Below, in pieces: positions 5,125 through 58,316 of a stretch of DNA of 61,014 nucleotides. Source of the DNA: Candidatus Yanofskybacteria bacterium (GTDB lineage: Bacteria > Patescibacteriota > Minisyncoccia > 2-02-FULL-40-12 > IGHO2-01-FULL-4-A); the NCBI GenBank assembly GCA_016185545.1, contig JACPNJ010000006.1:1-61014 (forward strand). Reading direction: 5' to 3'. The notes under the pieces are model-generated. The model worked only from the letters and a program-made list of their open reading frames with translations, was not told the origin of the DNA and searched no databases. The position numbers and the translations under genes were made by a program. How positions within the stretch are numbered: the first letter of the stretch is position 1; the number at the start of each line of letters is the position of its first letter.

Positions 5125-5598
5125 ATGTTAACAGGACGAATTTTTCTTATACTACACAACATCCGCAGTGCCTACAACGTCGGCTCTATTTTTCGTACGG
5201 CTGACGGGGTGGGGGTGGCTAAAATTTATATCTGCGGAATTTCGCCGACACCGGATGATGCTAAGGTAGCAAAAACTTCGCTGGGAGCAGAAAAGATGGT
5301 GCCGTGGGAATACCGTAAGCAAACATGGAGATGTTTGCTTGAAATCAAAAACCAAAACTCAAATCTCAAAATTATTGCATTAGAGCAAATGAAAAAAAGC
5401 GTAAATATTTTCAAATTCAAGCCGAAATTTCCATTGGCTCTTATTGTCGGCAATGAGGTGCGAGGCCTGAATAAAAAAATCCTGTCTTATGCTGACAAGA
5501 TTATTGAGATACCGATGTATGGCAAAAAAGAATCGCTTAATGTTGCAGTAGCAACTGGGGTGGCATTGTATACAATTTTAAATCCAAAATCTAAATGA
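5125..5598 (+). CDS. SpoU/TrmH-family RNA 2'-O-methyltransferase
   Basis: Motifs NVGSIFRTA, LIVGNEVRGL and IPMYGKKESLNVAVATGVALY. The start is set at the ATG at 5125, because the upstream part of the track ORF is antisense overlap with gene 4541-5098. Confidence 0.8.
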   Translation: MLTGRIFLILHNIRSAYNVGSIFRTADGVGVAKIYICGISPTPDDAKVAKTSLGAEKMVPWEYRKQTWRCLLEIKNQNSNLKIIALEQMKKSVNIFKFKPKFPLALIVGNEVRGLNKKILSYADKIIEIPMYGKKESLNVAVATGVALYTILNPKSK

Positions 5599-5670
5599 CA
5601 AATGCCAAATGGTTTTGGGTTTTAGATTTTGAGTTTGATTTGTAATTTGGATTTTGACATTTGGATTTTT
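5581..5670. repeat. AT-rich heptamer-periodic inverted array (CAAATGN-type units, then the inverse)
   Basis: Left arm: aatccaaaatctaaatgacaaatgccaaatgg. Right arm: ttttgggttttagattttgagtttgatttgtaatttggattttgacatttggattttt. It spans the SpoU stop (5596) to 2 nt before the rnhB ATG (5673). Confidence 0.8.
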
Positions 5671-5672
5671 AA

Positions 5673-6377
5673 ATGAGGCTTCCACACAAAACTCTTGAAA
5701 AAAAATTATTTGCGGACGGTTATCGCCATGTTATTGGCATAGATGAAGTTGGAATGGCTTGTCTGGCCGGACCTGTTTATGTTTGCGCGGTTTTGTTTAC
5801 TAAAGAATTTTTCGAAAAACCACATAAAAACCTGATCGGCTTGCGCGACTCCAAACAACTCTTACCGCATCAACGCGAAAAATTTTATGCCGAACTTATA
5901 AAAGAAGAGGGGATTAAGTACCAATTGGCTTCCTGCAATCCGAAAACAATAGACAAAATTAATATATATCAGGCGGCAAGGTTGACAATGAGAAGAGCCG
6001 TGAACAAACTAGGCGTCAGGTGCCAGGTGTCAGGTGTCAGAAAATCAAAACAAAAAAATTTTTACCTGAAACCTGTAACCTGCAACCTGAAACCTGCCGT
6101 TGTATTGGTTGATGGCAAGACTCCCATTAACGGTCTAAATCTGCCTCAAATGGCAATCGTGAAAGGCGACCGCAAGATTTTTGCTATTGCCTGCGCCTCT
6201 ATTATAGCCAAGGTTACCAGAGACCGCGTTATGTCACACCTTGCCAAGCGCTACCCCCAATACGGTCTTGAAAAACATAAGGGCTACCCAACCAAACTGC
6301 ACAAAGCCATGCTCATCCAACACGGTATTTGCGAAATACACAGAAAGTCTTTTGCACCAATAACTAAACTGCTATAA
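5673..6377 (+). CDS. rnhB: Ribonuclease HII, with a 29-codon in-frame heptamer-array insertion
   Basis: GIDEVGMACLAGPV (catalytic DE), VLVDGK, and IACASIIAKVTRD..YGLEKHKGYPT..H. Confidence 0.9.
   Translation: MRLPHKTLEKKLFADGYRHVIGIDEVGMACLAGPVYVCAVLFTKEFFEKPHKNLIGLRDSKQLLPHQREKFYAELIKEEGIKYQLASCNPKTIDKINIYQAARLTMRRAVNKLGVRCQVSGVRKSKQKNFYLKPVTCNLKPAVVLVDGKTPINGLNLPQMAIVKGDRKIFAIACASIIAKVTRDRVMSHLAKRYPQYGLEKHKGYPTKLHKAMLIQHGICEIHRKSFAPITKLL
6011..6097. repeat. Heptamer-periodic inverted array inside rnhB
   Basis: Sequence is aggcgtc aggtgcc aggtgtc aggtgtc ag, then an A-rich loop, then acctgaa acctgta acctgca acctgaa acctg. It is 87 nt (29 codons) with no stop. Confidence 0.9.
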
Positions 6378-6384
6378 TTCAGAG

Positions 6385-6747
6385 GTGCGGAAGCGAAATA
6401 TTATTTTGATTGTGTTGCTAATACTGGTGGCTCTATTTTTATTTGCACCTTCCTTGATTAAGCTAATATTTGCACCCAACGCTAATTTACCAATTTTTAA
6501 TCTAATAGATGCAGCGGCATGCGAAAGAAAGGGTGGAGTATACGAAAGGGCTGGATTGGCTGGTTACTATAGATGTATTGCAGCTTTCCCTGACGCTGGT
6601 AAAGAATGTACTAGTTCAAAAGAGTGCTCTTCGGGACGGTGCCAGATTACGGAGAGTGGTCAAAAAATAGGCAGGTGTAAAAAAGATGATAATCCATTCG
6701 GATGTTTCGGTAAAATTGAGGACGGGTATATACTTTGTGTAGATTAA
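6385..6747 (+). CDS. Hypothetical small secreted cysteine-rich protein (GTG start)
   Basis: N-terminal hydrophobic signal or anchor, then 8 Cys in about 80 aa. Confidence 0.5.
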   Translation: MRKRNIILIVLLILVALFLFAPSLIKLIFAPNANLPIFNLIDAAACERKGGVYERAGLAGYYRCIAAFPDAGKECTSSKECSSGRCQITESGQKIGRCKKDDNPFGCFGKIEDGYILCVD

Positions 6748-6760
6748 AACTTACAAAAAC

Positions 6761-7765
6761 ATGAATAAAATCGCAATCAATGGCTTTGGTCGTATAGGAC
6801 GGATATTTTTCAGGCAGGCATTCGGCCGTGCCGATTTGGATGTTGTCGCGATTAATGATTTGGGTACACCGGAAAATTTGGCTTACCTTTTGAAATACGA
6901 CACTGTGTACGGCCGATACGAAAAAGAGGTCGGCTATAAGGACTCCACGCTGGTAATTGAAGGCAAAGAGATTAGAGTGCTCAATGAAAAAGAGCCGGCT
7001 AAACTGCCATGGAAAGAACTTGGTGTAGATATTGTCATTGAATCAACCGGGGTTTTTGATTCGCGGGAACTTGCCGCGGCCCATCTTGACGCCGGCGCTA
7101 AGCGGGTAATAATTACCGCTCCCGCTAAAGACGAAATTACTCCTACGGCTACTCCGGGCCTTCTTGAAAACACCAAGCTGGATAAAATCACCTCCAATGC
7201 TTCCTGCACCACCAATGCCGTTAATCCTGTCATGGCGATAATGATGGCAAATCCCGGGGTACAAAAGGCGATACTTACAACTGTGCATGGTTACACGGCT
7301 ACGCAAGGTCTCGTAGATGGACCGGACAAAAAAGGCGATTTCCGCCGCGCCCGCGCGGCGGCGCAAAACATTGTGCCCTCCACAACCGGCGCGGCGGCGG
7401 CTACAGCCAGGGTTCTGCCGGGCCTCGCCGGTAAATTTGATGGCTTGGCAATCCGCGTACCGGTTCTATCCGGCTCGCTTATTGATATTACATTCCTGTC
7501 CGCCCGCCCGACTACAGCAGAAGAAATAAACGGCATATTTAAAGAAGCGGCCGTCCGACCGGAATGGCAGGGGATTTTGACTGTTACCGAAGACCCACTT
7601 GTATCATCTGATATTTTGCGTAATCACCACGGTTCAATCGTTGATTTGGCTTTAACACGCGTAGTTGATGGAGATTTGGTAAAAATTTTTTCCTGGTATG
7701 ATAACGAGTGGGGTTACGGAGCGATGCTTTTAAAGCATGTGCTCACGGTAGCTAGCATAATTTAA
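6761..7765 (+). CDS. gap: Glyceraldehyde-3-phosphate dehydrogenase, type I
   Basis: NGFGRIGR Rossmann start, active-site SNASCTTN, and WYDNEWGY near the C-terminus. Confidence 0.95.
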   Translation: MNKIAINGFGRIGRIFFRQAFGRADLDVVAINDLGTPENLAYLLKYDTVYGRYEKEVGYKDSTLVIEGKEIRVLNEKEPAKLPWKELGVDIVIESTGVFDSRELAAAHLDAGAKRVIITAPAKDEITPTATPGLLENTKLDKITSNASCTTNAVNPVMAIMMANPGVQKAILTTVHGYTATQGLVDGPDKKGDFRRARAAAQNIVPSTTGAAAATARVLPGLAGKFDGLAIRVPVLSGSLIDITFLSARPTTAEEINGIFKEAAVRPEWQGILTVTEDPLVSSDILRNHHGSIVDLALTRVVDGDLVKIFSWYDNEWGYGAMLLKHVLTVASII

Positions 7766-7862
7766 AATGCAAAATGCAAAAGTCAAAATTACAGTGCAAA
7801 ATTCAAAATTTTAAATTTTAAATTGTCATTTTTTATTTTGAGATTTACATTTTAAACTTTTG
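7764..7862. repeat. AT-rich heptamer-periodic inverted array
   Basis: Units aaaatgc aaaatgc aaaagtc aaaatta .. aaaattc aaaattt are followed by taaattt taaattg tcatttt ttatttt gagattt acatttt. It begins at the gap stop codon. Confidence 0.8.
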
Positions 7863-11035: not shown

Positions 11036-14000
11036 ATGAATTTTATGGAAAATATTGAAAATAGCAAAATTTTTGCCGATTTAAACGATAAACAAATTGA
11101 AGCGGTGCGGGCCATAGAAGGCCCTGTTTTAATATTGGCCGGCGCCGGAAGCGGGAAATGTGTTTCTGGAGATACTTTGATATTTACAGGGGCGGGCATA
11201 ATACCTATTGAAGAAATCCCTCTTCACTTTGGTGTTAGTTCACAAAATGATTGCTCCGCGCCAATACTTTCGCATCACTTAAACGGAAGTTTCTCTATCA
11301 AGAATACCTCCCATTGGTTCAGGTTCCCAAAAACTAAAGTCATAAAAATTAGCACCAAAAGCGGTTATCAAATTACGGGCACATACGAGCATCCCTTACT
11401 TGTGTTAAATAGAGAAGGCGAATTGGAGTTTAAAAAGCTACGGGACTTAAAGAACGGCGAAGTGGTTGCTATTTCCAAAAATAATAATATCTGGGGAAAT
11501 TACAATCTCCATCCTGAAATTGCTTATCTGATGGGATTACTGGTGGGCGATGGTTACCTGGGTTTCAAAAGCGGTATTGGTTTTGCCCAGGTCAGTGAAA
11601 ATTTGATCAAGGCATTTAAAAATATTTTAAAAAAATTCTTCCAAATCCAAGTGGCTAAAATTAAATCGCGAGAGAGATACCCGGCTGGCAATAAAAGGCG
11701 CTCCACAACTCATTACGTATATAATATGGCCCTAAAAAGAGAGTTGGAAGGTCTTGGTCTAAAAATGGTAGGTTCGCATCATAAATCAATCCCACAAAGC
11801 GTTCTTACAGCCCCCAAGGATTCGGCCAAAGCATTCCTGCAAGGACTTTTTGACACCGATGGAAGCGTAAGCGGAGCTACCGTAGAATTGACTACCGCCT
11901 CCGAAACTCTGGCCAAACAAGTGCATGTCTGCCTACTAAACTTTGGTATTCGCGCTTCGTTAAGGCCGAAATTTGTAAAAAGTTATCGTAACAATACCTA
12001 CTGGCGCATAGCAATAATGGGAACTTCACTAAGGACTTTTGCCGCTGAAGTTGGATTTAGGTACCAGGATCACAAAATAGAAAAACTCCAAGCCATAGCA
12101 AACAAGGTTAGCAATAGCAATGTTGAGGTAATTCCATTCCAAAACCTAAACATAAAACACTTTAAAGATAGATACCTGCTTGGCACTGAAATTTATGATG
12201 GCAAGTATTATTACATATTTCCAGAAACACATAATAAAATCTACATAAGGGATTACCTGCGCCGGAGAAGAAATCCCTCCCCTTGGCAATTAGAAAGAAT
12301 ACTAAAAACAGCGGGTAACGGAGCAAGAGATCCGCGAGTAGAGTATATGTTTAACCTCACTCGAAATTTCTTTTTCGACCCCGTTGTTGAGGTGGCGAGA
12401 GAAAAAGAGAAAATAATTGTTTATGATTTTACCGTACCTAAAAATCATACTTTTGTCGGCAATGGTTTTATAAATCACAATACCCGCGCGCTGACACACC
12501 GCATCGCTTATATGATTGCCAATAACATTCCGCCACAAAATATTTTGGCTGTTACCTTCACGAACAAGGCTGCCGGCGAGATTAAAGAAAGAGTTGTAAA
12601 ATTACTGTCCGAAACTCAACCTAAAACCTATGACCTGAAACCTATAACCTCCCCCTCGCCGTGGCTGGGTACCTTCCACTCAATTTGCCTGCGAATTTTG
12701 CGCCATGATATTAAAACCCTCCCGCCTTATACCGAGAACTTTGTTGTCTACGATGAGGACGACCAGCTGGGTCTGATTAAAAACGTAATGCGTGAACTGG
12801 AGCTTGATATTAAGAAATTCAATCCCAAGAATGTGCTCGGCCGAATCTCCGCCCTCAAAAGCGAGCTTATTGGCTACGAAGAGTTTACAGAAAAAGCCCG
12901 AGAATACTTTGAAAAAATAGTCGCTCCTGTTTATACCGGCTATCAGATTACACTCCAACAAAATAATGCTCTGGATTTTGATGATTTAATTATGCTTTGT
13001 GTCCGGCTTTTTCAGAAGCATCCCGAAATACTGGAAAAATATCAAAATCTCTTCCGCTATATACTAATAGACGAATATCAAGACACGAATCATAGCCAGT
13101 ACGTCTGGGTTAATTTGCTGGCGCAAAAACATAGAAATCTTTTCGTAATAGGAGACGACTATCAAAGCATCTATTCATTCCGCCTAGCAAATATCCGCAA
13201 CATCTTGGACTTTGAGAAAGATTATCCCGAAGCAAAAATTATACTGCTTGAACAAAATTACCGTTCCACGGGCAACATCCTTGCCGCCGCCAACAATATA
13301 ATCATTAAAAACAAGAACCAAAAACATAAAAAGTTATGGACGGAGAACTCGGCAGGCGACGAAATAATATTAAAAGAAGCCGCCAATGAGCGGCGAGAGG
13401 GGGATTACGTGATTGAAACGGTACGAAACAACCTTAAACAAGGCCGCGGCCTGCAAGATTTCACAATTCTTTATCGCACCCACGCCCAATCAAGAGCTAT
13501 TGAGGAAGCAATGATTAAGCATGGCCTGCCGTACCGTATACTTGGCGGAGTTAAGTTTTACCAACGGCGAGAAATTAAAGACATTCTGGCCTACCTGCGA
13601 CTGGCCGTAAATCCTAACGATCTTATTAGCTGGAGCAGGATTTACAACGTACCCGGCCGCGGTATAGGTCAAACAACCTGGCAAAAAATAAAAGAAGCGA
13701 GAAAATTAAACATCGCTGAAACAATAAAAAACATCACCCTGGAATCAAGCATCGGCCAAAAACAAACCATCGCCCTTAAGTTGCTGGCTAAGTTTATCGA
13801 GGAATTATCACAAAAATCAGCAGAACTCTCGCCATCTCAACTAATTAAATATATTCTGCAAAAAACTAACTACGAGTTATACATCAATGACAAAACCACG
13901 GATGGCGAAGAACGCTGGGAAAATGTCAAAGAAATTTTGACCGCCACCCGCAAGTATGACAGCGAAACAGCACCGAATGGCCTGCAAAAATTCCTTGAAG

Positions 14001-14380
14001 AGGTCGCCTTAATTCAAGAAACGGATAAGATTGACAAAAGCGGCGGCGCAATCAATCTTATGACAATACATTCGGCCAAGGGCTTAGAGTTTCCGATTGT
14101 ATTTATCATTGGTATGGAAGATGGCATCTTCCCGCACTCGCGCGCCTTATTTGAGCCTGCGGAACTTGAGGAGGAAAGGAGACTTTGTTATGTCGGTATC
14201 ACTCGCGCCAAAGAACAGCTTCATCTGACCTATTGCCGAGAACGTATGTTTTATGGTTCTACTCAACTCAACCCGCCATCCAGATTTTTATTTGAAATCC
14301 CGGAACATTTGTTAAATTACTCGCCGCTTAGCCAAAATAAATATACGGAGGATTGGGACGATAAAATTGAGTACTATTAA
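11036..14380 (+). CDS. pcrA: ATP-dependent DNA helicase PcrA/UvrD, interrupted by an intein in the Walker A motif
   Basis: The exteins read AGAGSGK|T RALTHRIAYM, TFTNKAA, IDEYQDTN, DDYQSIYSFR, NYRS, IHSAKGLEF and YVGITRA. Confidence 0.9.
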   Translation: MNFMENIENSKIFADLNDKQIEAVRAIEGPVLILAGAGSGKCVSGDTLIFTGAGIIPIEEIPLHFGVSSQNDCSAPILSHHLNGSFSIKNTSHWFRFPKTKVIKISTKSGYQITGTYEHPLLVLNREGELEFKKLRDLKNGEVVAISKNNNIWGNYNLHPEIAYLMGLLVGDGYLGFKSGIGFAQVSENLIKAFKNILKKFFQIQVAKIKSRERYPAGNKRRSTTHYVYNMALKRELEGLGLKMVGSHHKSIPQSVLTAPKDSAKAFLQGLFDTDGSVSGATVELTTASETLAKQVHVCLLNFGIRASLRPKFVKSYRNNTYWRIAIMGTSLRTFAAEVGFRYQDHKIEKLQAIANKVSNSNVEVIPFQNLNIKHFKDRYLLGTEIYDGKYYYIFPETHNKIYIRDYLRRRRNPSPWQLERILKTAGNGARDPRVEYMFNLTRNFFFDPVVEVAREKEKIIVYDFTVPKNHTFVGNGFINHNTRALTHRIAYMIANNIPPQNILAVTFTNKAAGEIKERVVKLLSETQPKTYDLKPITSPSPWLGTFHSICLRILRHDIKTLPPYTENFVVYDEDDQLGLIKNVMRELELDIKKFNPKNVLGRISALKSELIGYEEFTEKAREYFEKIVAPVYTGYQITLQQNNALDFDDLIMLCVRLFQKHPEILEKYQNLFRYILIDEYQDTNHSQYVWVNLLAQKHRNLFVIGDDYQSIYSFRLANIRNILDFEKDYPEAKIILLEQNYRSTGNILAAANNIIIKNKNQKHKKLWTENSAGDEIILKEAANERREGDYVIETVRNNLKQGRGLQDFTILYRTHAQSRAIEEAMIKHGLPYRILGGVKFYQRREIKDILAYLRLAVNPNDLISWSRIYNVPGRGIGQTTWQKIKEARKLNIAETIKNITLESSIGQKQTIALKLLAKFIEELSQKSAELSPSQLIKYILQKTNYELYINDKTTDGEERWENVKEILTATRKYDSETAPNGLQKFLEEVALIQETDKIDKSGGAINLMTIHSAKGLEFPIVFIIGMEDGIFPHSRALFEPAELEEERRLCYVGITRAKEQLHLTYCRERMFYGSTQLNPPSRFLFEIPEHLLNYSPLSQNKYTEDWDDKIEYY
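11159..12481 (+). mobile_element. Intein (441 aa) with LAGLIDADG homing-endonuclease domain, inserted between K and T of GSGKT
   Basis: It starts CVSGDTLIF, has block B TGTYEHPLL, endonuclease motifs LMGLLVGDGYL and FLQGLFDTDGSV, and ends VGNGFINHN followed by +1 Thr. Confidence 0.85.
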
Positions 14381-15211: not shown

Positions 15212-16899
15212 GCGGCTTGCTCTTGTCCCTTGCCTATTCGGGTTGGAGTTTTGATTTGGGCTGGCTGGTCTGGATTGGATTTGTTCCACTTTTTTGGTCG
15301 TTGGCCCAAATCGTTTCCGAATACGAACATACTCGGAAACGATTTGGATTTTTGATAGGGTTCATCGCAGGACTTGTTTATTTTTTGATAATTTTCCGCT
15401 GGTTTTGGTCTATCTATCCGCTGGATACACTTGGCATTGAAAACCGTTCTATCTCCTTCGTCGCTGTTCTGCTTGTTTATCTGATTAGCTCTGCCGGAAT
15501 GGCAGTGTTTTGGGGACTTTTTGGAGCAGGTTTCAGGTTTCAGGTTTCAGGTTTCAGGTTTCAAAATGGATCAAGCACCTGGCACCTGGCACCTGGCACC
15601 TGGCACCCTTTGTTAATACTTTCCGCCCTATTCGTCCTGTTTGAATATCTCCGCTCCTGGGGTTTCGGGTTTTTGTGGGCCGGTTCCAATTCGCTTTTTG
15701 GCCCGCATTGGACATTGGGCAATCTGGCTTATGCTTTGGCCGATAATCCATTGGCGCTCAAACTCGCTTCGTTTGTTGGCGTCTATGGGGTTACTTTTGC
15801 GATTATTTTTATAAATTGCCTAATTTTTATAATTTTAAAAAAAAGGACTTATCTTGTAACCACAAGAATAGTCCTTGTGGTTTTGATACTTTTATTGGCT
15901 ACCTTTGGAACCAGGTTAATTAAATTTACGGCCACGCAGCAAGAAAAAAGTAAACAAGTTAACTTCGCCATTATACAAACCGCCCGGCCAACCAAAGTTT
16001 TGCCAAGTCCTCAAGAAACCTTGGCCGATCTCAAAGAACAGCTTGAATTACTTGACCGTGTCGCCAAAGAACATCCCGAAAGCCAGCTTATCGTTTTCCC
16101 CGAAACAAGCGACCTATTTAAAAATATCGCCCTGTTTTTAACCCCAGTGCAAGCCCAGGAATATTTTAGCAATCTTTTTGAAGATCCGAAATTAATAATT
16201 GCCGGCGGTAGAGTTATTGATTCCAATAGCAGTGCCTACTCACGTGTTTTCGATCTTAATACACAAAACGGCATTATCAACTATTATGATAAGCGTCTTC
16301 TAACTCCAGGCGGTGAATTTTTGCCTTACCCGGTAAAATTAATCGCTTGGATATTTTCAAAAACCACGGCCAATCAATTTGACAGCTTGCGCGAATTAAA
16401 TGTTGGCGTTAAAGATGTCTCAACTGTAAACTTCCGCGACCAATTTAAGGTAGCACCGATGATTTGTTCTGAATTGCTATCACCGAGTTTAGTCAAACAA
16501 ACTTCCCAAAGTTCAGATGTAATCGTCAGTATGGCAAGTTATGGAATTTTTCACGGAAATCCTGTTATAGCAAAGCAGATGCTTGCCACTACACGCTTCA
16601 GAGCAATAGAGAACACCAAACCAGCCGTTACCGCCGCTAATTTGGGACGCTCTTATGCAATAGACAGTCGAGGAAAAGTTGCTTATTTAGCCGCAAACTC
16701 CGATCCGCAGATATTAACAGGTTCTATTGTGCTAGGTTCCGGTAAATCGTGGTATAATAGAGTAGGCGATTTGCCAATAATTTTGGTATCTTTGCTATTG
16801 ATGGTCCTAGGGTTCAGGTTACAGGTGTCAGGTTACAGGGGAAGAATAAAATCTTGGTTATGGAGGAACCAAGAAATTAAAAATGGTAAATTCCTATAA
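15175..16899 (+). CDS. lnt: Apolipoprotein N-acyltransferase with heptamer-array segments
   Basis: Polytopic N-terminal half, then a CN-hydrolase domain (AIIQT.., VFPETS, APMICSEL). Confidence 0.8.
   Translation: MAKYRYYALAALSGLLLSLAYSGWSFDLGWLVWIGFVPLFWSLAQIVSEYEHTRKRFGFLIGFIAGLVYFLIIFRWFWSIYPLDTLGIENRSISFVAVLLVYLISSAGMAVFWGLFGAGFRFQVSGFRFQNGSSTWHLAPGTWHPLLILSALFVLFEYLRSWGFGFLWAGSNSLFGPHWTLGNLAYALADNPLALKLASFVGVYGVTFAIIFINCLIFIILKKRTYLVTTRIVLVVLILLLATFGTRLIKFTATQQEKSKQVNFAIIQTARPTKVLPSPQETLADLKEQLELLDRVAKEHPESQLIVFPETSDLFKNIALFLTPVQAQEYFSNLFEDPKLIIAGGRVIDSNSSAYSRVFDLNTQNGIINYYDKRLLTPGGEFLPYPVKLIAWIFSKTTANQFDSLRELNVGVKDVSTVNFRDQFKVAPMICSELLSPSLVKQTSQSSDVIVSMASYGIFHGNPVIAKQMLATTRFRAIENTKPAVTAANLGRSYAIDSRGKVAYLAANSDPQILTGSIVLGSGKSWYNRVGDLPIILVSLLLMVLGFRLQVSGYRGRIKSWLWRNQEIKNGKFL
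15528..15607. repeat. Heptamer-periodic inverted array inside lnt
   Basis: (aggtttc)x4-5, loop aaaatggatcaag, then (cacctgg)x3-4. It is translated as FRFQVSGFRFQ..STWHLAPGTWHP. Confidence 0.9.
16809..16840. repeat. Heptamer array, left arm of the cassette enclosing four-helix-bundle gene 1
   Basis: Sequence agggttc aggttac aggtgtc aggttac aggg, located in the last codons of lnt. Confidence 0.85.
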
Positions 16900-17239
16900 G
16901 GATTTGACTGTTTGGCAAAGGTCTCTCGAGTTAGTCAAAGAAATTTATAAAACAACTAGATTTCTACCAAAAGATGAAATTTATGGTTTAACGAATCAGA
17001 TGAGAAGGGCAGCAATATCGATACCTTCTAACATAGCCGAGGGACATCAAAGAAAAAATCTAAAAGAATATCTGCAATTCTTGAGAATATCTTATGGCTC
17101 GGCTGCAGAGCTAGAAACACAGCTTATTATTTCCAAAGAAATATATCCACGCATAGATTTTTTGACAGCGGAGTCGCTTCTTAAGGAAGTTCATAAAATG
17201 TTAAATACTCTGATCCAGAAACTTGAATTAAAATTTTAA
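16883..17239 (+). CDS. Four-helix-bundle protein (23S rRNA intervening-sequence protein family)
   Basis: Family signature Y.DL.VWQ....L...IY......P..E.YGL..Q.RRAA.SI..NIAEG.....K.....F..I..GS..E..T. Confidence 0.85.
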   Translation: MVNSYKDLTVWQRSLELVKEIYKTTRFLPKDEIYGLTNQMRRAAISIPSNIAEGHQRKNLKEYLQFLRISYGSAAELETQLIISKEIYPRIDFLTAESLLKEVHKMLNTLIQKLELKF

Positions 17240-17270
17240 CCTGAAACCTGATCCCTGAAACCTGTAACCT
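17239..17270. repeat. Heptamer array, right arm (inverse units) of cassette 1
   Basis: Sequence acctgaa acctgat ccctgaa acctgta acct, starting in the stop codon of the four-helix-bundle gene. Confidence 0.85.
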
Positions 17271-17302
17271 TCTGCTAGCGGGAGGCTAGCGGCATACAAA
17301 AC

Positions 17303-18289
17303 ATGAACATGAAATTAAAAATAATCCTGGGAGCATTGCTACTTATCGCCGGCTTTCTTGTTGTCCGGCTGGGTTTGTTTTTTAAACATAGCGTCCAAAC
17401 GGCGACAACGGCAAACATTGGGAATCAAATCGCCGGGGTGAATGAAACAAACTGGTCTGCCGTGGATACCGACAGTGACGGCATCCCGGATGCAAACGAA
17501 GCCTACTACCGGACCGACCCCTTTAATTCCGATACGGACAGCGACGGCTATCTGGATGGCGAAGAAATAATTTCCGGTTTTAATCCCACAAGAAAAGAAA
17601 ACCCAACCGAACGCAATAAACAAACCGGAAATTTAACCAATTCCTTGGTCCAACACATAGCAACTGGCATTTATACCGGTGATTTAAGCCCAAAAATTGG
17701 TGAAAGCCAATACGAAAAAAACCTAAATCTTCTGACGCTGGGCACAATTAATGAAGCGATAGATTTGTTAAACCCACCGCTTATTTCTGATGCCAGTTTG
17801 GTTATAGTTGGCAAATCAAAACAATCACAAGAAGAATATCTGACCAATACCGCCTCATTACTGGAAGGCCCGTTTTTGAATTCGTTCATGCAGCAGGGGC
17901 AAGTTTTAAGCCAAGCGGCTAATTTTATGGTCGGATTTAAATACACCGAGGCCACTGAAATTTTCAAAAACTATTATTTAACCTTCACGAATGCCCACAA
18001 CCAGCTACTGACCGTTTCGGTGCCGGAAAATTGGGTTAATTTTCATAGACACCTGCTAGCGATTTTCCAAAAAATGGCTCTGAATTACCGTTCACTCACC
18101 CAGATAGCCAATGACCCGCTTTTGGCTATAACGGCCTTGCAAAATATCCCAAACAATCTGCTAGAAATTGATTCATCTTTAATTCAAGAACTCAGAATTT
18201 TAATCCAAAAAGAAAATTTAGAAATACCCAATTCATCTCTTTTTGATGTTTTGGATCTGTTAAATACCAATAAAACCCGTGATAACTAA
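17303..18289 (+). CDS. Membrane-anchored secreted protein with thrombospondin-type-3-like Ca-binding repeats
   Basis: N-terminal transmembrane segment, plus DTDSDGIPDANE and DSDTDSDGYLDGEE motifs. Confidence 0.6.
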   Translation: MNMKLKIILGALLLIAGFLVVRLGLFFKHSVQTATTANIGNQIAGVNETNWSAVDTDSDGIPDANEAYYRTDPFNSDTDSDGYLDGEEIISGFNPTRKENPTERNKQTGNLTNSLVQHIATGIYTGDLSPKIGESQYEKNLNLLTLGTINEAIDLLNPPLISDASLVIVGKSKQSQEEYLTNTASLLEGPFLNSFMQQGQVLSQAANFMVGFKYTEATEIFKNYYLTFTNAHNQLLTVSVPENWVNFHRHLLAIFQKMALNYRSLTQIANDPLLAITALQNIPNNLLEIDSSLIQELRILIQKENLEIPNSSLFDVLDLLNTNKTRDN

Positions 18290-19388
18290 TAACTGGACAA
18301 AAGCAATCTTAAGTCTCGTCGTTATTGGCTTTTTGGTCTTGTATCCCGTTCATTCCGCCCGTTCGGTCGGGGCTATTATGTATGTCCTCAAAGAATTCGG
18401 CCTGGACCTCATAGCCAGAGTAATTGGCAGAACTTTTTTGACTAAGATGATCAATAGCACTACGGATTTTTTAAGCAAGAACGGCAGAGACGGCCTACCC
18501 AATTTCGTGCAGGATTGGCGGAGTTTTCTTCAGGAAGCACAATACAGAGGCGAAGACATAACAAGAGCGACAATCGGTGAGGCTATAAACAATAATGCGA
18601 TATGCGATTACCTTAAAAGCCCGCTTGCCAATGCTTTCGGCGCTTTCGCACAATCAGGTTTCAGCGCCACCAAACATAGGGTTGACTCACTTCAGTATTA
18701 CGCACTTCGTAACAGATGTACTCTGCCTGTAGGTTTCAATGTAAATACATTTAGAAACGACTTTTCCGTAGGCGGTGGTTGGGCAGCTTGGGATAAACTA
18801 ATCCAGCCACAGAATAATTTTTTCGGAGTTTACGCCGACTCCCTGGACGAACTGGAAAAACAAAGAAGTTTTGAAGAGAGAAGGGACCGCAGTGAAGCTG
18901 AAGCTGGTAGCGGTTTTACTTCAAAGACGGGCGGGAAAGAGGGCGGCTGTGAGATTAGATCGCCGGGAAATGTAGCCTGTTTGGTTCTCGGTCAAATACA
19001 AACACCATCCAAGATACTAGGAGAGATCGGGAGCGATTTAAACACTGGTGAATTTGACTGGCTGACTAGTTGCGATGAATTAAGCGAATGTTTGATCTCT
19101 GCCACCACTTTCGTACTTAACAGGTTGGGTAACTTTACGGGCGCAGGTTCACGTGTTAGCGAACCTCCGCCAGCGGATACATCTTTTGGTGATGCGGCAA
19201 AAGATGAAGTGTTTAATGATTGCGTCAAATCCAAAGAGGCGGGGTGCGTAGAGAAAGCCAAGAGGTTAGAGTGTACTACCTTCACCTCTCCGGATGGTAC
19301 GACAACAGAAGATTGTGTAGAGATAATAGATCAGGGAATTTTTAACGTTTGCATGGATGAAGCAAGAAGAATTTGCACGGTTCAATGA
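18279..19388 (+). CDS. Hypothetical secreted cysteine-rich protein
   Basis: N-terminal transmembrane segment or signal and many Cys in the C-terminal half. It overlaps both neighbours, suggesting an operon. Confidence 0.55.
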   Translation: MITNNWTKAILSLVVIGFLVLYPVHSARSVGAIMYVLKEFGLDLIARVIGRTFLTKMINSTTDFLSKNGRDGLPNFVQDWRSFLQEAQYRGEDITRATIGEAINNNAICDYLKSPLANAFGAFAQSGFSATKHRVDSLQYYALRNRCTLPVGFNVNTFRNDFSVGGGWAAWDKLIQPQNNFFGVYADSLDELEKQRSFEERRDRSEAEAGSGFTSKTGGKEGGCEIRSPGNVACLVLGQIQTPSKILGEIGSDLNTGEFDWLTSCDELSECLISATTFVLNRLGNFTGAGSRVSEPPPADTSFGDAAKDEVFNDCVKSKEAGCVEKAKRLECTTFTSPDGTTTEDCVEIIDQGIFNVCMDEARRICTVQ

Positions 19389-21661
19389 GCAAAAAAGGTA
19401 ATAAATTTGGTGTGCTATTAGCCGTAATTATTTTACTGGCCGTTTTTGTTCCGCAATATCAGGCAAGAGCTGATTTGTTTGATATAGGTAGTATTGCCAG
19501 TGGGGCAGTGGCGAAAGTGGTGGGTTATATAAATACCCTTTTACTTGGCTTTCTAGGAGAAGTTATATCATATTTTGCACAGCTTATTGAAGAGTTTATC
19601 ACGCTTCAAACCAACGGCGGCATTTATAATGTTGCCATAGTCGATGGGAGTTGGACCATTATTAGGAACTTCGTAAACTTATTTTTTATTTTAGCTCTAA
19701 TAGTAATGGCATTCGGCACAATATTTAATATTCAAAGATATACTTGGAAAAATATGCTGGCCCCTTTTTTAATAGCCGCTCTTCTCATAAATTTCAGTCT
19801 GACCATAGGGCAATACATCATTACGGTCGCCAACGGTTTGGCTACTGTTTTTTTAAGAGAAATGCAAGACCCGCAGGTGGGAGGTATAGCAGCAAATTTT
19901 CAGAATGGATTTAGTAGCGCAAAAATAATAACAAGCGGTACAACAAGTATTAGCGCTTTACAAGCAATGGGCGATGCCGCCGCGGGTATCGGCAGTGTTG
20001 TTCTTACCCTGATTTTTTCTGTTATATTTTTAGCGGCTATAGCATTGGCATTTATCGCAACGGCTATTTTTTCAATCGTGAGATTATTTATGCTTTGGTT
20101 TCTTTTAATCATTTCCCCGATTGCCTGGTTTGGTTATACGATGCCTAATTTGAGAAGTGGGACATGGAGCGCCTGGTGGAAGCAATTCTTATGCTGGTGT
20201 TTTTTCTTGCCATATTTTCTATTTTTTATGATGTTCGCGGTTAGTTTCATTAAAAACAAAGGTTTAATATCCCTACCCTCGACTCTCGGACGCATATCGG
20301 TGGCTGGTATGACTGGAAATGATTTTGTATTTTATTTATTGAGTTTAATATTCCTCTTCGGCGGAATGGCGATTGCACATAAACTTGCTTGCGCGAGCGG
20401 CACGGGGGTAAAAGCGGTATTCGGCAAGATTGAAACCGGGGTGCGCAAATACGCCCCCGGAGCGGCTTATGTCAGGGCCACATATACTGGCGCGAAAGAA
20501 GGATTGGCGGCTAAAGGCGCGGAAATAAAGGAAAGGGGGATGCCAATCGGTTTTGGCCGCCGGGTTGGCGGAGAACAGGCTGAACGTTTACGAACCGCCC
20601 GGGTAGCTGAAGCATTCGGTATGGGCGCGAAAGTCGGAGAAGCCGGGAGAGTGCAGATGGCCGAAATTGAAAAAGAGGCCAAGAGAGTTCGTGAACAGTT
20701 ACTAAGAACGCCAGCTGATCAGCAAAAATCCTTTTTGGAATCATCGCGTTCCCAAAAAGGAGTAATCGGTCAAGCAGCAGCCCTTGAGTACGTTAAGCAA
20801 GGATATTCAACACTAGCTGATTATCAGGAAGCTGTTAAAAAATTTGGCGACGAAAACAGCGCCTTCATGCGCCAATACTTGGAAAACCTCAAACAAGCCA
20901 AGCTTAGTGATCTGTTTAAGAGTCCGGACGCGGAATTGCGTATCGCCAGAGGCGAGGCAGAAGAAACTGTGGGTTTGGTCAATCTTCGCCGCGAACTTTA
21001 TAAAGACCTCGCTAAGAGAAATCGAATTAATAATACGGCCGATTATAATCAAGCAAAGGAGATTTTGTCGCCAATCCCAGCCGAGTTAAGGTCTTTCTTG
21101 GATTCAGTCAAAGCAGAAGCGATATTTACTACAAGAGAACAAAGACAGGATGCGCTTTTGGATTCCACTAATAAGATCGGGGATGCCGATTTGGAAAAGA
21201 AATTGGTTGAATTTATGAAAGAAAAGAAGGAAATAACCGACTTCAGGAAAAAGGACACCAAAGAGCTCGTAGCGGCTGGCTGGCAATTACGCGAAAAGGC
21301 GTTGGAAATTTTGGGCGGCAAGGAAACATTTGACGGCAAAGGCTTAATTAAAGAAATAAATAATTATAATCCGATTATTAACATTGAGGCCGAGATGAGA
21401 ACGGCGCCAGGAGCTAAGCCATTCCTGGACAATGAAGAACTAATAAGCAAGCTACAGGAAGAACTCAAGGGCAAGTCTTACGCCGACATAAGAAAGATGT
21501 CCGGTAAATTCTTTGAGGACCCGGCGGCCCAAGAGGCAATAAAGAGAATGTACGACCCGAAAGAAATAGCGGACTTAATTAAGAATTCATCGCAAGAAAT
21601 GAGAAGAGCGCTAAAAGATTTTGCCATATCGGAAGAAAAAACTAAAAGAAGTCGCACGTAA
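19373..21661 (+). CDS. Polytopic membrane protein, VirB6/TrbL-like, with long charged C-terminal domain
   Basis: Signal-like N-terminus and about 7-8 hydrophobic segments over the first 350 aa or so. It sits upstream of the PrgI-like and VirB4-like genes. The family call is inferred from topology and context, not motifs. Confidence 0.5.
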   Translation: MHGSMSKKGNKFGVLLAVIILLAVFVPQYQARADLFDIGSIASGAVAKVVGYINTLLLGFLGEVISYFAQLIEEFITLQTNGGIYNVAIVDGSWTIIRNFVNLFFILALIVMAFGTIFNIQRYTWKNMLAPFLIAALLINFSLTIGQYIITVANGLATVFLREMQDPQVGGIAANFQNGFSSAKIITSGTTSISALQAMGDAAAGIGSVVLTLIFSVIFLAAIALAFIATAIFSIVRLFMLWFLLIISPIAWFGYTMPNLRSGTWSAWWKQFLCWCFFLPYFLFFMMFAVSFIKNKGLISLPSTLGRISVAGMTGNDFVFYLLSLIFLFGGMAIAHKLACASGTGVKAVFGKIETGVRKYAPGAAYVRATYTGAKEGLAAKGAEIKERGMPIGFGRRVGGEQAERLRTARVAEAFGMGAKVGEAGRVQMAEIEKEAKRVREQLLRTPADQQKSFLESSRSQKGVIGQAAALEYVKQGYSTLADYQEAVKKFGDENSAFMRQYLENLKQAKLSDLFKSPDAELRIARGEAEETVGLVNLRRELYKDLAKRNRINNTADYNQAKEILSPIPAELRSFLDSVKAEAIFTTREQRQDALLDSTNKIGDADLEKKLVEFMKEKKEITDFRKKDTKELVAAGWQLREKALEILGGKETFDGKGLIKEINNYNPIINIEAEMRTAPGAKPFLDNEELISKLQEELKGKSYADIRKMSGKFFEDPAAQEAIKRMYDPKEIADLIKNSSQEMRRALKDFAISEEKTKRSRT

Positions 21662-21677
21662 TTAGCATAACTACCAC

Positions 21678-22256: not shown

Positions 22257-22292
22257 GTTATAGGTTATAGCTGATAGCTGATAGGTGATAGC
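22255..22292. repeat. Heptamer array, left arm of the cassette enclosing four-helix-bundle gene 2 (AGGTTAT/AGCTGAT flavour)
   Basis: Sequence aggttat aggttat agctgat agctgat aggtgat agc. It begins within the TAG stop of the upstream ORF. Confidence 0.85.
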
Positions 22293-22705: not shown

Positions 22706-22736
22706 CTATAACCTATGACCTATAAGCTATCACCTG
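22706..22736. repeat. Heptamer array, right arm of cassette 2
   Basis: Sequence ctataac ctatgac ctataag ctatcac ctg. It starts 1 nt after the stop and ends 4 nt before the next ATG. Confidence 0.85.
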
Positions 22737-23760: not shown

Positions 23761-23830
23761 AGGTGTCAGGTGCCAGGTTTCAGGTTACAGAAAATCACAC
23801 CTGACACCTGACACCTGACACCTGACACCT
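23761..23830. repeat. Heptamer-periodic inverted array between the two VirB4 parts
   Basis: Sequence aggtgtc aggtgcc aggtttc aggttac ag, loop aaaatcac, then (acctgac)x4 acct. Confidence 0.9.
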
Positions 23831-44887: not shown

Positions 44888-44962
44888 AGGTTTCAGTTTT
44901 CAGGGATCAGGTTTCAGGTACTAGAGAAGAACCTGTAACCTGTAACCTGTAACCTGTAACCT
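44888..44962. repeat. Heptamer-periodic inverted array (yebC stop to ruvC start)
   Basis: Sequence aggtttc agttttc agggatc aggtttc aggtac, loop tagagaaga, then (acctgta)x4 acct. Confidence 0.9.
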
Positions 44963-56177: not shown

Positions 56178-56264
56178 CTTTGGGACATCAATGTCCATTA
56201 GACATTCGATGTCAGTAATTAAGATTTGACCCCCGTTTCAGTTTATTGTTAGTATTAACTCAAT

Positions 56265-57035
56265 ATGGATTCAGAAATAAAACCAGAGATTACAGATGAT
56301 TCTCGCGAGGCGGTTGCCGAGATTACAGCCGCGGATGTGCCAAAGCTAAACGAAACCAAACCAGTCTATGCCCAATTTATTTTACCCGGGGCGATTTTGC
56401 TCGCGGCGCTGATTGTTTCCGGCACACTGCTTTATACTCGCGGCGGCGATGTAACGGCGCAAATAAGCGGCTCGGTCGTGAAGTCGGAAAAAACGGAAAT
56501 AAAAATTAGCTCTAGTGACCATATACTGGGCAATCAAAAGGCCAAGATAACCATTGTAGAGTTTAGCGATTTTCAGTGTCCGTTTTGCAGAAGTTTTTGG
56601 AATGGCGCATTTCAGGAAATAAAAACGAATTACATTGATACCGGCAAGGCCAAATTTGTTTATAAGCATTTTCCGTTGAGTTTCCACTCTGCTGCACAGC
56701 CAGCAGCCGAAGCGTCCGAATGCGCTAACGATCAGAGTAAATTCTGGGAATTTCACGACAAAATTTTTGAAGAGCAAGCCAAGCTTGGGCAAGGAACAAT
56801 ACAATTCGGCAAACCGGAAATTATTAAATGGGCGGCGGCAATCAAGCTTAATATGCCCCAGTTCAATGAATGTTTTAATTCTGGCAAATACGCCCAGCGC
56901 GTGAGCGACGACATGGCCCAGGGTAGCAAGGCAGGCGTTGGCGGTACGCCGACCACATTTATCAACGGCCAAAAGATCGTCGGTGCTTTATCCTTTGCCA
57001 GTTTTAAAGCGGTTATTGATGGCTTATTGAAATAG
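56265..57035 (+). CDS. DsbA-family thiol:disulfide oxidoreductase with N-terminal anchor
   Basis: Thioredoxin-fold active site FSDFQCPFC and GTPTFFING-like GGTPTTFINGQ. Confidence 0.85.
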   Translation: MDSEIKPEITDDSREAVAEITAADVPKLNETKPVYAQFILPGAILLAALIVSGTLLYTRGGDVTAQISGSVVKSEKTEIKISSSDHILGNQKAKITIVEFSDFQCPFCRSFWNGAFQEIKTNYIDTGKAKFVYKHFPLSFHSAAQPAAEASECANDQSKFWEFHDKIFEEQAKLGQGTIQFGKPEIIKWAAAIKLNMPQFNECFNSGKYAQRVSDDMAQGSKAGVGGTPTTFINGQKIVGALSFASFKAVIDGLLK

Positions 57036-57086
57036 TGTTTCTTGATCGAAGATCTTGATTTCAGGTATAATTTGGAGTTAAATTTT

Positions 57087-57110
57087 AAAATCAGCGAACT
57101 GCTGATTTTT
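57087..57110 (+). terminator. Hairpin plus T-run after the DsbA-family oxidoreductase gene (56265-57035)
   Basis: Sequence aaaatcagc gaact gctgattttt. Confidence 0.6.
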
Positions 57111-57113
57111 ATT

Positions 57114-58316
57114 ATGTCTAAGAAACAAATTTATCTGGATTATGCCGGGACGACACCAATGGATCCGCGGGTAGAACGGGTGGTTTTGAAGCACCTGCGG
57201 GAGAGCTGGGGCAATGCGTCGTCAGTGCATGAAATTGGAAGGCAGGCAAGAAAAGTAATTGAGGATTCTCGCAAAACCGTAGCAAAAGTTTTGGGAGTAA
57301 AATCGGAGGAGATAATTTTTACCGGCTCTGGCACCGAATCGGCAAATCTGGCGATATTTGGAGTGGCGAGGGCATATAAAAAATACGGCAAACATATTAT
57401 AACTTCAAAATTTGAGCATCCTGCCGTTTTGCGCGCTTGCCAGTATCTGGAGCAAAATGAGGGGTTTAAAGTTAGCCATTTGGATGTCAGTAAAAACGGA
57501 ATTATTAATCCAGAATCCGTACGCAGAGCATTGAGACCGGACACAATTTTAGTTTCAATTATGTATGCCAATAACGAGATTGGCACGATACAGCCAATTG
57601 CGGCTATCTCTAAAATCTTAAAAGATTTTAGAGATAGCCGCAGGTTACAGGTTACAGGTTACAGGTTACAGATGTATGAAAAAGCTCTGCTTTTTCATAC
57701 TGACGCTTGCCAAGCGGCAGGAGCTTTGAATTTAAATATTAATCAACTTGGCGTTGATTTAATGACGCTTAACGGCTCCAAAATTTACGGTCCTAAGGGA
57801 ACTGGCTGCCTTTATGTCAGACGAAATATTGAGCTTGCGCCTCAAATAGTTGGCGGGTCTCAAGAAAGGGGATTACGCGCCGGCACGGAAAACCCCGCTT
57901 TAATTGCCGGATTTACTGAGGCGCTAAAAATCGTCGATAAAAACCGTGCCAAAGAAAACGCGCGATTAACTGAACTGCGCGATTATATGATTGGGCAAAT
58001 TTTAAAAACAATTCCCGGCGGTTGTCTTAATGGTGACGCAATTAAACGTTTGCCTAACAATATCAATATCTCCTTCAAAGATACAGACGGCGAAATGCTG
58101 ATGTTGGCATTTGATCAAAAAGGTATTCAAGTTTCAACCGGTTCCGCTTGCACCTCCACTTCAACTGAACCATCGCATGTGCTCAAAGCCATTGGTTTAT
58201 CCGATGAACTTGCAAAAGGAAATATCCGTATAACTCTTGGCCGGCAGACAAAGAAAAAAGACATAGACTATGTCCTAAAGACGCTCGTATCTCTTGTGAA
58301 AAAATTACGCAAATAG
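57114..58316 (+). CDS. Cysteine desulfurase (NifS/IscS class), with an in-frame heptamer-array insertion
   Basis: YLDYAGTTP, HTDACQA, the PLP lysine in LNGSKIYGPKG, and the catalytic Cys in STGSACTS. The start is set at ATG 57114, downstream of the terminator hairpin. Confidence 0.9.
   Translation: MSKKQIYLDYAGTTPMDPRVERVVLKHLRESWGNASSVHEIGRQARKVIEDSRKTVAKVLGVKSEEIIFTGSGTESANLAIFGVARAYKKYGKHIITSKFEHPAVLRACQYLEQNEGFKVSHLDVSKNGIINPESVRRALRPDTILVSIMYANNEIGTIQPIAAISKILKDFRDSRRLQVTGYRLQMYEKALLFHTDACQAAGALNLNINQLGVDLMTLNGSKIYGPKGTGCLYVRRNIELAPQIVGGSQERGLRAGTENPALIAGFTEALKIVDKNRAKENARLTELRDYMIGQILKTIPGGCLNGDAIKRLPNNINISFKDTDGEMLMLAFDQKGIQVSTGSACTSTSTEPSHVLKAIGLSDELAKGNIRITLGRQTKKKDIDYVLKTLVSLVKKLRK
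57642..57671. repeat. Heptamer array (single arm, AGGTTAC x4) inside the cysteine desulfurase gene
   Basis: Sequence aggttac aggttac aggttac aggttac ag, translated as RLQVTGYRLQ. A perfect 11-bp hairpin follows at 57674-57700. Confidence 0.9.

Follow-up and report, generated by a model that had tools for sequence, protein, structure and literature searches.

A 61,014-nt stretch (positions 1-61,014 of contig JACPNJ010000006.1, assembly GCA_016185545.1; hereafter called the window) of a Candidatus Yanofskybacteria bacterium carries about 15 copies of a dispersed repeat with a common sequence, made of tandem 7-nt units with an AGGT core that are mostly followed by inverse units with an ACCT core. 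On balance, these heptamer arrays probably represent an intervening-sequence-like, largely selfish family of palindromic elements with open reading frame (ORF)-bearing and ORF-less forms, kept where they are harmless. The design of the family would be 5'-(YAGGTNN)n, loop, (NNACCTR)n-3', with the purine-rich arm first. The long form would hold in its loop a gene for a PF05635 intervening-sequence protein (IVP) with its own Shine-Dalgarno (SD) sequence, an arrangement known from classical 23S rRNA intervening sequences with an IVP gene and here sited in mRNA operons, and the short form would have the same stem around a loop of 10-25 nt. The genome is otherwise compact, and the elements are additions to it that some close relatives have and others lack; whole units are gained and lost in their arms; and the sites at which the elements survive lie exactly between a stop codon and the next start codon, or in frame and stop-free within variable stretches of proteins.

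A scan for three consecutive AGGTNNY units on both strands, with up to two mismatches, returned 72 matches in the window against 0.32 ± 0.58 in dinucleotide shuffles, and Tandem Repeats Finder reported period 7 at every listed array site, including the AT-rich ones at 5593-5669 and 7759-7861. Chaining of AGGT and ACCT cores at 7-nt spacing yielded paired arms at 6018/6064, 15528/15577, 16816/17239, 22255/22711, 23045/23083, 23761/23799, 25617/25670, 36695/36741, 37329/37371 and 44909/44931, and solo arms at 12619, 22090 and 57642. The AGGT arm comes first in every pair of the window, whichever strand carries it; under the strict pattern, the ACCT-first arrangement occurs 0 times in the window against four AGGT-first cases, polarity among loci gathered by a pattern scan being biased by the selection of those loci. 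Array loops in the window have CAGAAAAT in common. Arms are internally homogeneous, and the partner arm of the same array often differs at the NN positions. Two flavours occur, TAGGTTA/TAGCTGA in the arms of the second IVP element (IVP2) and in the array at 36694, and CAGGTNN in the arms of the first (IVP1) and in the other arrays.

True short-loop inverted arrays number eight (6011, 15528, 23045, 23761, 25617, 36694, 37329 and 44888). These eight CAGGT-type short arrays fold with ΔG values of -21 to -43 kcal/mol and z-scores of -3.9 to -8.6, into 5-6 bp helices interrupted by a 1x1 or 2x2 internal loop every 7 nt; the AT-rich arrays at 5578-5672 and 7759-7861 fold weakly (z -2.5 and -0.56). 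The initial annotation had described at least 14 loci of a single inverted design with a periodically interrupted stem pairing at the AGGT/ACCT core. This hairpin architecture is borne out by folding, and 7-nt units with that core recur everywhere, but the single design does not hold throughout: 22090 and 57642 lack an inverse arm, the arms at 16809/17239 and 22255/22706 lie 395 and 414 nt apart and each enclose a PF05635 gene, and the AT-rich arrays stand apart in their folding. At the gathering score, Rfam matches in the window comprise only a 16S rRNA and two tRNAs, the arrays giving sub-threshold noise from microRNA-hairpin models. Intrinsic termination was rejected as a role, as no junction array was called as a terminator, terminator-like sites (14) match expectation (13.5), and start codons directly follow the arrays. 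Sigma-70-like promoter scores arise at 23808-23835 and 16825-16852, where the 3'-arm units CTGACA and GTGTCA are combined with a downstream TAAAAT; promoter-like sites overall in the window are not above shuffles (32 vs 25 ± 4.5). A separate 21/42-nt tandem repeat (4.8 copies, 93% identity) at 3309-3428, within the minus-strand ORF 3220-3705, is unrelated to the heptamer arrays.

The two IVP genes of the window encode four-helix-bundle proteins of 118-121 aa, belong to PF05635/TIGR02436 ("23S rRNA intervening-sequence protein"; NCBIfam TIGR02436 E-values of 4e-35 and 2e-34) and each lie between inverted heptamer arms on the plus strand. The 5' arm of IVP1 (16809-16843) doubles as coding sequence for the C-terminal tail of Lnt; the gene itself (16883-17239; Pfam E 6e-35) has a GGAGG SD sequence in the loop, and its stop codon TAA overlaps the first unit of the 3' arm (17239-17270). 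The closest structure to IVP1 is the Xanthomonas campestris XCC0516 pentamer (PDB 2GSC, E 5e-21). For IVP2 (22340-22705; Pfam E 1e-34), the first unit of the 5' arm (22255-22291) contains the stop TAG (22254-22256) of the upstream ORF 21678-22256, and the 3' arm (22706-22735) is followed by the prgI start at 22741. The two arm pairs could each close a long stem around the gene. Both elements lie between protein genes rather than at the tip of an rRNA helix, IVP1 between lnt and the next ORF and IVP2 between ORF 21678-22256 and prgI. The window also holds a partial 16S rRNA gene at 25-1391 (Rfam model positions 803-1387), interrupted at about 292-1111 by an insertion of 820 nt that contains an ORF of 197 aa (395-988) and has no heptamer arms; there is no match beyond model position 1387, and the 3' end is therefore absent or interrupted a second time, as is typical of rRNA genes of the Candidate Phyla Radiation (CPR).

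Across genomes, an IVP gene lies between purine-first inverted arms of 7-nt periodicity in 17 independent contexts (the two of the window and 15 further ones), 12 in Patescibacteria and five outside the CPR. Among the 12 Patescibacteria contexts, autocorrelation peaks at lag 7 in ten upstream and 11 downstream flanks, with means of 0.66 and 0.67, respectively, compared with a control value of 0.41 (95th percentile 0.57). The non-CPR contexts comprise Pseudoalteromonas denitrificans (GAAAGTA), a planctomycete (TAGAAGC), a marine cysH-cysN locus (CAGCTNT), the brxB-brxC junction of a bacteriophage exclusion (BREX) system (CAGGGNN) and, more weakly, a Chromatiales Rnf locus (L051; L numbers denote loci of other genomes). 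The arm unit varies by genome (CAGGTNN, TAGGGTN, TAGTTTC, TAGCTTN, CACGTAA, AAAAATC, GAAAGTA, CAGGGNN), two heptamers alternating in the arms of L215, and it equals the unit of the ORF-less arrays of the same genome in the window, L125 and L215. IVP genes occupy four junctions of one operon resembling type IV secretion system (T4SS) operons, namely before prgI (window, L198, L215, L221), between prgI and the VirB4 N-domain gene (L180), between the VirB4 N-domain and ATPase genes (L205) and after the ATPase gene (L124-129), and point the same way as their neighbours in every case. The IVP proteins of L218 and L220 are identical, and the arms around the two genes differ by one heptamer unit; in L217, where the element lies between infC and rpmI, one arm has 1-2 units and the other 11. 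IVP genes wedged between cas genes have been noted earlier, without a heptamer-arm explanation (PMC3936711).

The PF05635 family is very large, with at least 7,986 members at E ≤ 1e-5 among the best 8,000 candidates scored. Many non-CPR relatives reach just 44-109 aa or run on in a different frame (P0168-P0251; L051 6776-7054; L223 601-885), which suggests frequent gene decay inside the arms. In the Staskawiczbacteria loci L124-L126, the unit TTAGGGT (e.g. L125 6069-6145), which read in tandem is the plant-type telomere repeat (TTTAGGG)n, forms an inverted array between jag and yidC and also surrounds an IVP gene; in the downstream flank of L124, TTCCGCG repeats are spaced by about 11-12 nt rather than 7. 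Small PDDEXK_3 (PF13366) genes adjoin IVP genes in two unrelated lineages (L124 16-414; L223 1-125) and may be a second kind of operon hitch-hiker.

Close relatives show what these loci look like with and without the elements. L121 and L122 (Hainich groundwater) and L130 (Ca. Yanofskybacteria) are syntenic with positions 11-18 kb of the window. In lnt, the window and L121 both have an array, with unlike NN units, and L130 has none; the rsmA gene of L121 contains two arrays absent from the window, one an extra LQVTGYRLRGEGGNKKPETWTLKP segment and the other a replacement of host sequence at equal length. At the orthologous junctions of the T4SS-like operon, neighbouring genes of L135-L144 overlap or lie 0-17 nt apart (TAAATG, TAATG, ATGA, TAA-CT-ATG, TAG-CC-ATG); array-free examples include TAAATG in L136, TAA-CT-ATG at the VirB4 N-domain/ATPase junction of L135, and the 17-nt spacer after the ATPase gene in L136. 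At the prgI/VirB4 N-domain junction, L136 and L137 are array-free and L135 has an array of CAGTTTA units. Because the same junctions are array-free in close relatives, the arrays are dispensable additions. Near-identical contigs had been considered as a source of polymorphism and were rejected, as L131-L134 are 100% identical to the window and merely break inside arrays; these are independent short-read assemblies of the same population that begin or end within arrays (relative to window positions 15534-22277), and the arrays fragment CPR assemblies. At the VirB4 N-domain/ATPase junction, L140 has a spacer of about 199 nt (around 5800-6000), the predicted fold of which (ΔG -84 kcal/mol) consists mainly of a long non-heptamer hairpin, and L124 and L125 have a long AT-rich hairpin; this junction attracts unrelated palindromes.

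The IVP1 arms are identical between the window and L121 at 37/37 nt (5') and 47/48 nt (3'), mismatches included, whereas the flanks are about 73-76% identical. Since the arms are near-identical against such surroundings, this conservation suggests that something, possibly the IVP pentamer, may read the arm sequence itself and not only its pairing. In one extension of the preferred reading, each subunit of the IVP pentamer would bind one 7-nt unit of an arm, an arm usually counting 4-5 units, much as ring proteins such as the trp RNA-binding attenuation protein (TRAP) bind spaced triplets. IVP and hairpins would then form a partnership like that of the repetitive extragenic palindrome (REP) and its REP-associated tyrosine transposase (RAYT), extending from rRNA intervening sequences to operon junctions in many phyla and driving the spread of the elements or controlling transcript processing and coupling. 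We put this forward tentatively, as an unlikely possibility.

Insertion between genes is the common situation: with 89% of the window coding, eight of ten short arrays still fall between genes (binomial P ~8e-7 for two or fewer of ten intragenic, calculated by hand). On the plus strand, such arrays separate prgI (stop TAG 23044-23046) from the VirB4 N-domain gene (start TTG 23114; array 23045-23114, ΔG -32.7 kcal/mol, z -6.8), the VirB4 N-domain gene (stop TAA 23753-23755) from the VirB4 ATPase gene (array 23761-23830, ΔG -43.1, z -8.6), and the latter (stop TAG 25616-25618) from the next gene (start ATG 25696; array 25617-25695, ΔG -40.1, z -6.8). On the minus strand, they separate yidD (stop TGA 36762-36760) from yidC (start TTG 36691; array 36694-36765, TAGGTTA/TAGCTGA flavour, ΔG -28.5, z -5.5), rpmH (stop TAG 37387-37385) from rnpA (start TTG 37322; array 37329-37388, ΔG -20.8, z -3.9), and yebC (stop TAG 44963-44961) from ruvC (start ATG 44876; array 44888-44962, ΔG -31, z -4.5). 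The AT-rich arrays, not assigned to a strand, extend from the SpoU-type methylase gene, whose stop TGA (5596-5598) lies inside the 5' arm, to the rnhB start at 5673 (array 5578-5672, ΔG -21.1), and begin at the TAA stop (7763-7765) of gap, which encodes GAPDH (array 7759-7861). The first unit thus contains the stop TAG of ORF 21678-22256, prgI, the VirB4 ATPase gene, rpmH and yebC, the TGA of yidD and the SpoU-type gene, and the TAA of gap, and TAG is over-represented at arrays (5/8 stops vs 14/52 overall). The starts of prgI, the VirB4 N-domain gene, the gene at 25696, yidC, rnpA and ruvC follow the last unit by 0-11 nt. Homology backs these starts, as the RuvC and RnpA domains begin at residue 3-4 and the starts of prgI and the gene at 25696 match their orthologues codon for codon.

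Within the window, the stop-in-first-unit geometry (TAG at 22254, 23044, 25616, 37387-85 and 44963-61, TGA at 36762-60, TAA at 7763) and the enrichment at gene junctions asserted in the initial annotation are therefore confirmed, and so is the start spacing for all six of these genes; for rnhB, said to start 2 nt after the 6011 array, it is wrong, since the array sits within that gene and RNase HII aligns on both sides of it. The lack of room for an SD sequence, presented there as a special feature, loses its force. SD-like motifs precede only 7/52 genes of the window, two of them the IVP genes, and array-free junctions lack them too, so the missing SD after arrays is the norm for this organism. 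Two candidate disruptions were rejected. The VirB4 N-domain and ATPase parts, which array 23761 might have split, form two ORFs in nearly all of 80 related loci, L209 alone having a fusion, and YebC is not truncated by array 44888, its C-terminus aligning to the native end of Aquifex YebC and its shortness reflecting an internal deletion. If array 25617 were excised exactly, a TGATG overlap would be restored; no other array behaves alike, and we take this as chance. Where the VirB4 ATPase genes of L135-L137 have their ATG start, the window has ATT (about 23835-23837), and the next ATG (23894) lies about 19 codons downstream, which makes the start assigned to this gene uncertain.

Two functional explanations compete for this geometry. 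In the first, the arrays would be a selected device for translational coupling, in which the stem holds stop and start together for SD-less reinitiation and three-frame stops in the arms clean up frame errors. The stop does lie opposite the start at the stem base in 23045/23114 and 25616/25696; the start codon after an array is TTG or ATT, against ATG in array-free orthologues, for prgI of L135, the VirB4 N-domain genes of the window and L135, and the VirB4 ATPase gene of the window; L143, L135 and L217 repeat the stop-in-first-unit, start-after-last-unit geometry with unrelated units; and the same idea has been put forward for cyanobacterial hairpins of short tandemly repeated repetitive (STRR) sequences (PMC2670836). 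However, the ancestral junctions (TAAATG, TAATG, ATGA) were already optimally coupled and an array adds nothing obvious to them, intragenic and solo-arm copies have no such role, and selfish insertion into spacers of 0-2 nt would leave the same geometry after selection, which makes a coupling device rather unlikely.

The second, proposed in the initial annotation, is a dedicated host system in which intercistronic sites for RNase III, a double-strand-specific RNase, cut polycistronic mRNAs and release leaderless downstream cistrons. Long stems placed exactly between stop and start, the junction enrichment of the short arrays and the excision of IVP-bearing intervening sequences by RNase III at comparable stems (PMC4990558) fit such a system. 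On the other hand, five copies stand in frame within intact conserved genes, whose mRNAs efficient cleavage would destroy; the same junctions work array-free in relatives at 83-86% protein identity; the scarcity of SD motifs leaves their absence needing no special cause; and cleavage within the stem would produce an mRNA with a structured 10-30 nt leader, not a leaderless one. We found nothing in favour of leaderless release, and a dedicated stop-to-start punctuation system is contradicted by the five copies translated within genes and the two arm pairs that enclose a gene; we regard dedicated processing sites as quite unlikely.

The five intragenic arrays or arms of the window, in rnhB, lnt, iscS, uvrD and ORF 21678-22256, are all in frame and stop-free and are therefore translated. 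In rnhB (5673-6377), the CAGGT-type inverted array at 6011-6096 (plus strand, ΔG -34, z -5.7) falls between residues 96 and 97 of Thermotoga maritima RNase HII, to which query residues 13-115 align at 6-98 and 138-234 at 97-191; the array is a translated insertion of roughly 22-26 aa. The 81-nt CAGGT-type inverted array in lnt (15528-15608, plus strand, ΔG -37.3) combines 5'-arm AGGTTTC units with 3'-arm GGCACCT units, both free of stops in all frames, is spanned by the Pfam LNT_N domain and encodes the peptide RFQVSGFRFQNGSSTWHLAPGTWH. The remaining copies, all on the plus strand, are a solo ACCT-type arm of five units in uvrD (12619-12650), which the initial annotation did not list and for which no inverse partner was found, a solo AGGT-type arm in ORF 21678-22256 (22090-22120), bracketed by an 8-nt inverted pair (22074-22081/22126-22133), and a 69-nt insertion in iscS (57620-57688) with (CAGGTTA)4, which corresponds to an 18-aa gap against Escherichia coli IscS. 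All three intragenic sites of L121 are likewise in frame without stops, and host-protein alignment continues on both sides; a palindrome in a conserved ORF, with frame kept and host alignment on both sides, is thus found in rnhB, iscS, lnt and rsmA of L121. A protein search with an array-encoded peptide for further host proteins returned only spurious ORFs of 24-72 aa. The uvrD gene (11036-14380) also contains an intein with a LAGLIDADG_3 domain at residues ~89-482, which is absent from the L121 orthologue (659 aa) and present in that of L130.

These copies bear on a further explanation, in which the arrays are removed at the RNA level or bypassed by the ribosome, as intron-like or 'byp'-like inserts that leave host genes unaffected. 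The VirB4 N-domain and ATPase ORFs do share a frame across array 23761-23830, with a TTA codon ahead of the stop and another in frame past the array. Yet about 75 of 76 related loci encode the two as distinct genes (L209 again being the fusion), and all eight intragenic copies keep the frame and avoid stops, which would be needless if they were removed or bypassed. Splicing and bypass were rejected on this ground, and such removal is extremely unlikely.

The iscS insertion consists, in order, of the reverse complement of 20 left host bases, (CAGGTTA)4 and the reverse complement of 12 right host bases, which leaves perfect inverted pairs at 57600-57619/57622-57641 and 57674-57685/57689-57700. 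This pattern is typical of fold-back or template-switch repair and suggests such repair rather than cut-and-paste transposition. A 10-nt hairpin with 90% complementarity (57700-57720) follows the insertion.

ORF-less arrays extend far beyond the Patescibacteria. A scan for three exact AGGTNNC units, a loop of 4-30 nt and three GNNACCT units, with one genome per species, retrieved at least 120 loci, and the matches listed span more than ten phyla and 36-70% GC, among them Acidobacteriota, Gemmatimonadota, Desulfobacterota, Planctomycetota, Chloroflexota, Bacteroidota, Elusimicrobiota, Cloacimonadota, Gammaproteobacteria, Deinococcota and Actinomycetota. Within lineages, the copies have loops and outer flanks in common (e.g. 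the Desulfobacteraceae and Acidobacteriota loci), which indicates that they are copied elements. In the lower-GC subset of the listed arrays, most are intergenic and several start 2 nt after a stop codon.

This breadth has to be set against the view that the arrays are simple-sequence repeats only, in which local slippage and occasional template switching make the inverse arm and there is no element identity, mobility or function. Whole-unit changes in copy number (L218 vs L220; L217), arms that are homogeneous within and often unlike their partner at the NN positions, solo direct arrays at junctions in L141 and the inverted host duplications in iscS would all be expected of such repeats, and heptanucleotides are the most abundant class of long simple-sequence repeats in most bacterial genomes (PMC4679880). 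Against this, the CAGGT/ACCTG core and the purine-first polarity recur in more than ten phyla among the matches listed, loops and outer flanks are common to copies within lineages, the arms are tied to one protein family in 17 contexts, and those of IVP1 are kept with their mismatches; simple repeats alone are thus very unlikely to account for the arrays.

Within the reading that we favour, an intervening-sequence-like and largely selfish or near-neutral element family, copies at junctions would be tolerated because the first unit supplies a TAG and a stop-bearing unit repeated three times closes all frames. The stem base would set the upstream stop beside the downstream start, so that the termination-reinitiation coupling already used in SD-poor overlapping operons may still work. 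In the transcript, the stem would be a likely RNase III substrate, as in rRNA intervening sequences, and cleavage would also free the IVP cistron; by this analogy, RNase III processing of the arrays is plausible. The elements would spread via break repair or template switching rather than by cut-and-paste transposition.

Several observations weigh against this reading. Efficient RNase III cleavage would be harmful at the in-frame copies of lnt, rnhB and iscS. That the IVP1 arms are so strongly conserved favours a function over pure selfishness. The match between IVP arm units and ORF-less array units is not strict, L221 having TAGCTTN arms around its IVP gene and an AT-rich array at its VirB4 N-domain/ATPase junction. 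An IVP gene near every short array in other phyla was looked for and is not the case: only one of the 120 non-CPR short-array loci listed has an IVP gene within 8 kb, so the short arrays may spread or arise independently of IVP. Finally, no transposase domain was present among the 30 ORFs scanned in the window, and comparison of empty with occupied sites revealed no target-site duplication or defined termini at array borders, the iscS copy having inverted rather than direct duplications; because no transposase, target-site duplication or defined ends were found, the term mobile is taken from presence/absence comparison only.

The rRNA intervening sequences and the S23p/IVP gene have been known since the early 1990s, and we know of no established origin or function for them. 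If IVP genes always lie between heptamer arms and ORF-less copies occur widely in many phyla, both in operons and within coding sequence, the rRNA intervening sequence would become a special case of a general class of elements, and IVP would gain a concrete candidate ligand in the heptamer arms. Several artefacts familiar to annotators would also be explained, including tiny spurious ORFs, odd TTG or ATT starts, peptide insertions like 'RFQVSGF' within conserved enzymes and breaks in CPR contigs. Should the pentamer read the arms, this would give a first function for PF05635 and, by extension, for Avd-like proteins, as well as a reason for the period of 7. The arrays would further lend themselves to studying, in a natural setting, whether termination and reinitiation can be bridged by a stem.

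In-frame palindromes in conserved genes have a reported precedent in the Rickettsia palindromic elements (RPE), which Ogata and colleagues are said to have described in 2000 as translated into extra peptide segments. Both would be translated in-frame palindromes, but RPE are 100-150 bp long, non-periodic and not known outside Rickettsia, have no sequence relation to the arrays of the window and no known associated gene. The units of STRR1-3 presumably differ in sequence from the CAGGTNN, TAGGTTA and AT-rich units of the window. STRR sequences resemble the arrays in their 7-bp tandem units and in a possible hairpin between co-transcribed genes, and differ from them in units and phyla and in having no reported link to IVP, in-frame intragenic copies or stop/start geometry. 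An STRR heptamer hairpin between hupS and hupL of cyanobacteria has been proposed to stabilise the transcript or couple translation (PMC2670836). TAACTGA heptamers of Beggiatoaceae, cyanobacteria and Bacteroidetes are intergenic, most often end 1 nt before a start codon, sometimes overlap the end of the upstream ORF, supply stops in three frames, usually go without an SD sequence and are scattered across phyla (PMC4679880). Unlike the arrays of the window, TAACTGA repeats are direct (one inverted case in 170 sets), have a different unit and no known associated gene. These two systems weaken the novelty that the initial annotation had attached to the heptamer hairpin architecture.

Correia hairpins, also known as NEMIS, are RNase III substrates. 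REP/REPIN-RAYT and Correia elements are short multi-copy palindromes located right after genes and co-transcribed with them (PMC3116915, PMC3333891), and REP has a cognate single-copy protein gene flanked by the same repeat, as IVP lies between its arms. Unlike REP and Correia elements, the window arrays have periodic heptamer arms, no TA duplication and no HUH or insertion-sequence transposase among the ORFs scanned, and the partner candidate in the window is a four-helix-bundle protein without known catalytic activity. Intercistronic heptamer hairpins, start-abutting heptamers, IVP genes between inverted repeats and, reportedly, in-frame palindromes in Rickettsia are thus already described. 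Searches of full-text literature, with subscription journals outside coverage, gave no description of IVP genes between heptamer-periodic purine-first arms, of an ORF-less CAGGT hairpin common to many phyla, or of copies in frame within CPR housekeeping genes; all three, the CAGGT core being phylum-wide, appear undescribed so far.

Among known systems, the IVP/S23p-bearing 23S intervening sequences of Leptospira, Coxiella, Xanthomonas and Brucella and the rRNA insertions of CPR bacteria carry the same PF05635/TIGR02436 gene inside the element. Their terminal inverted repeats form a stem, of 28 bp in a described case, that is cut by RNase III (PMC4990558), and short intervening sequences without an ORF also exist (PMC4990558, PMC11270868). 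In Coxiella, the stem length of 28 bp corresponds to 4 x 7. The elements of the window share with them inverted repeats with a stem of ~28-35 bp, placement within and co-orientation with the host transcript, and a sporadic distribution that suggests horizontal spread. The window arms are tandem heptamers that form predicted stems. Unlike the rRNA elements, those of the window have an mRNA operon or a coding sequence as host and reach about 15 copies in 61 kb.

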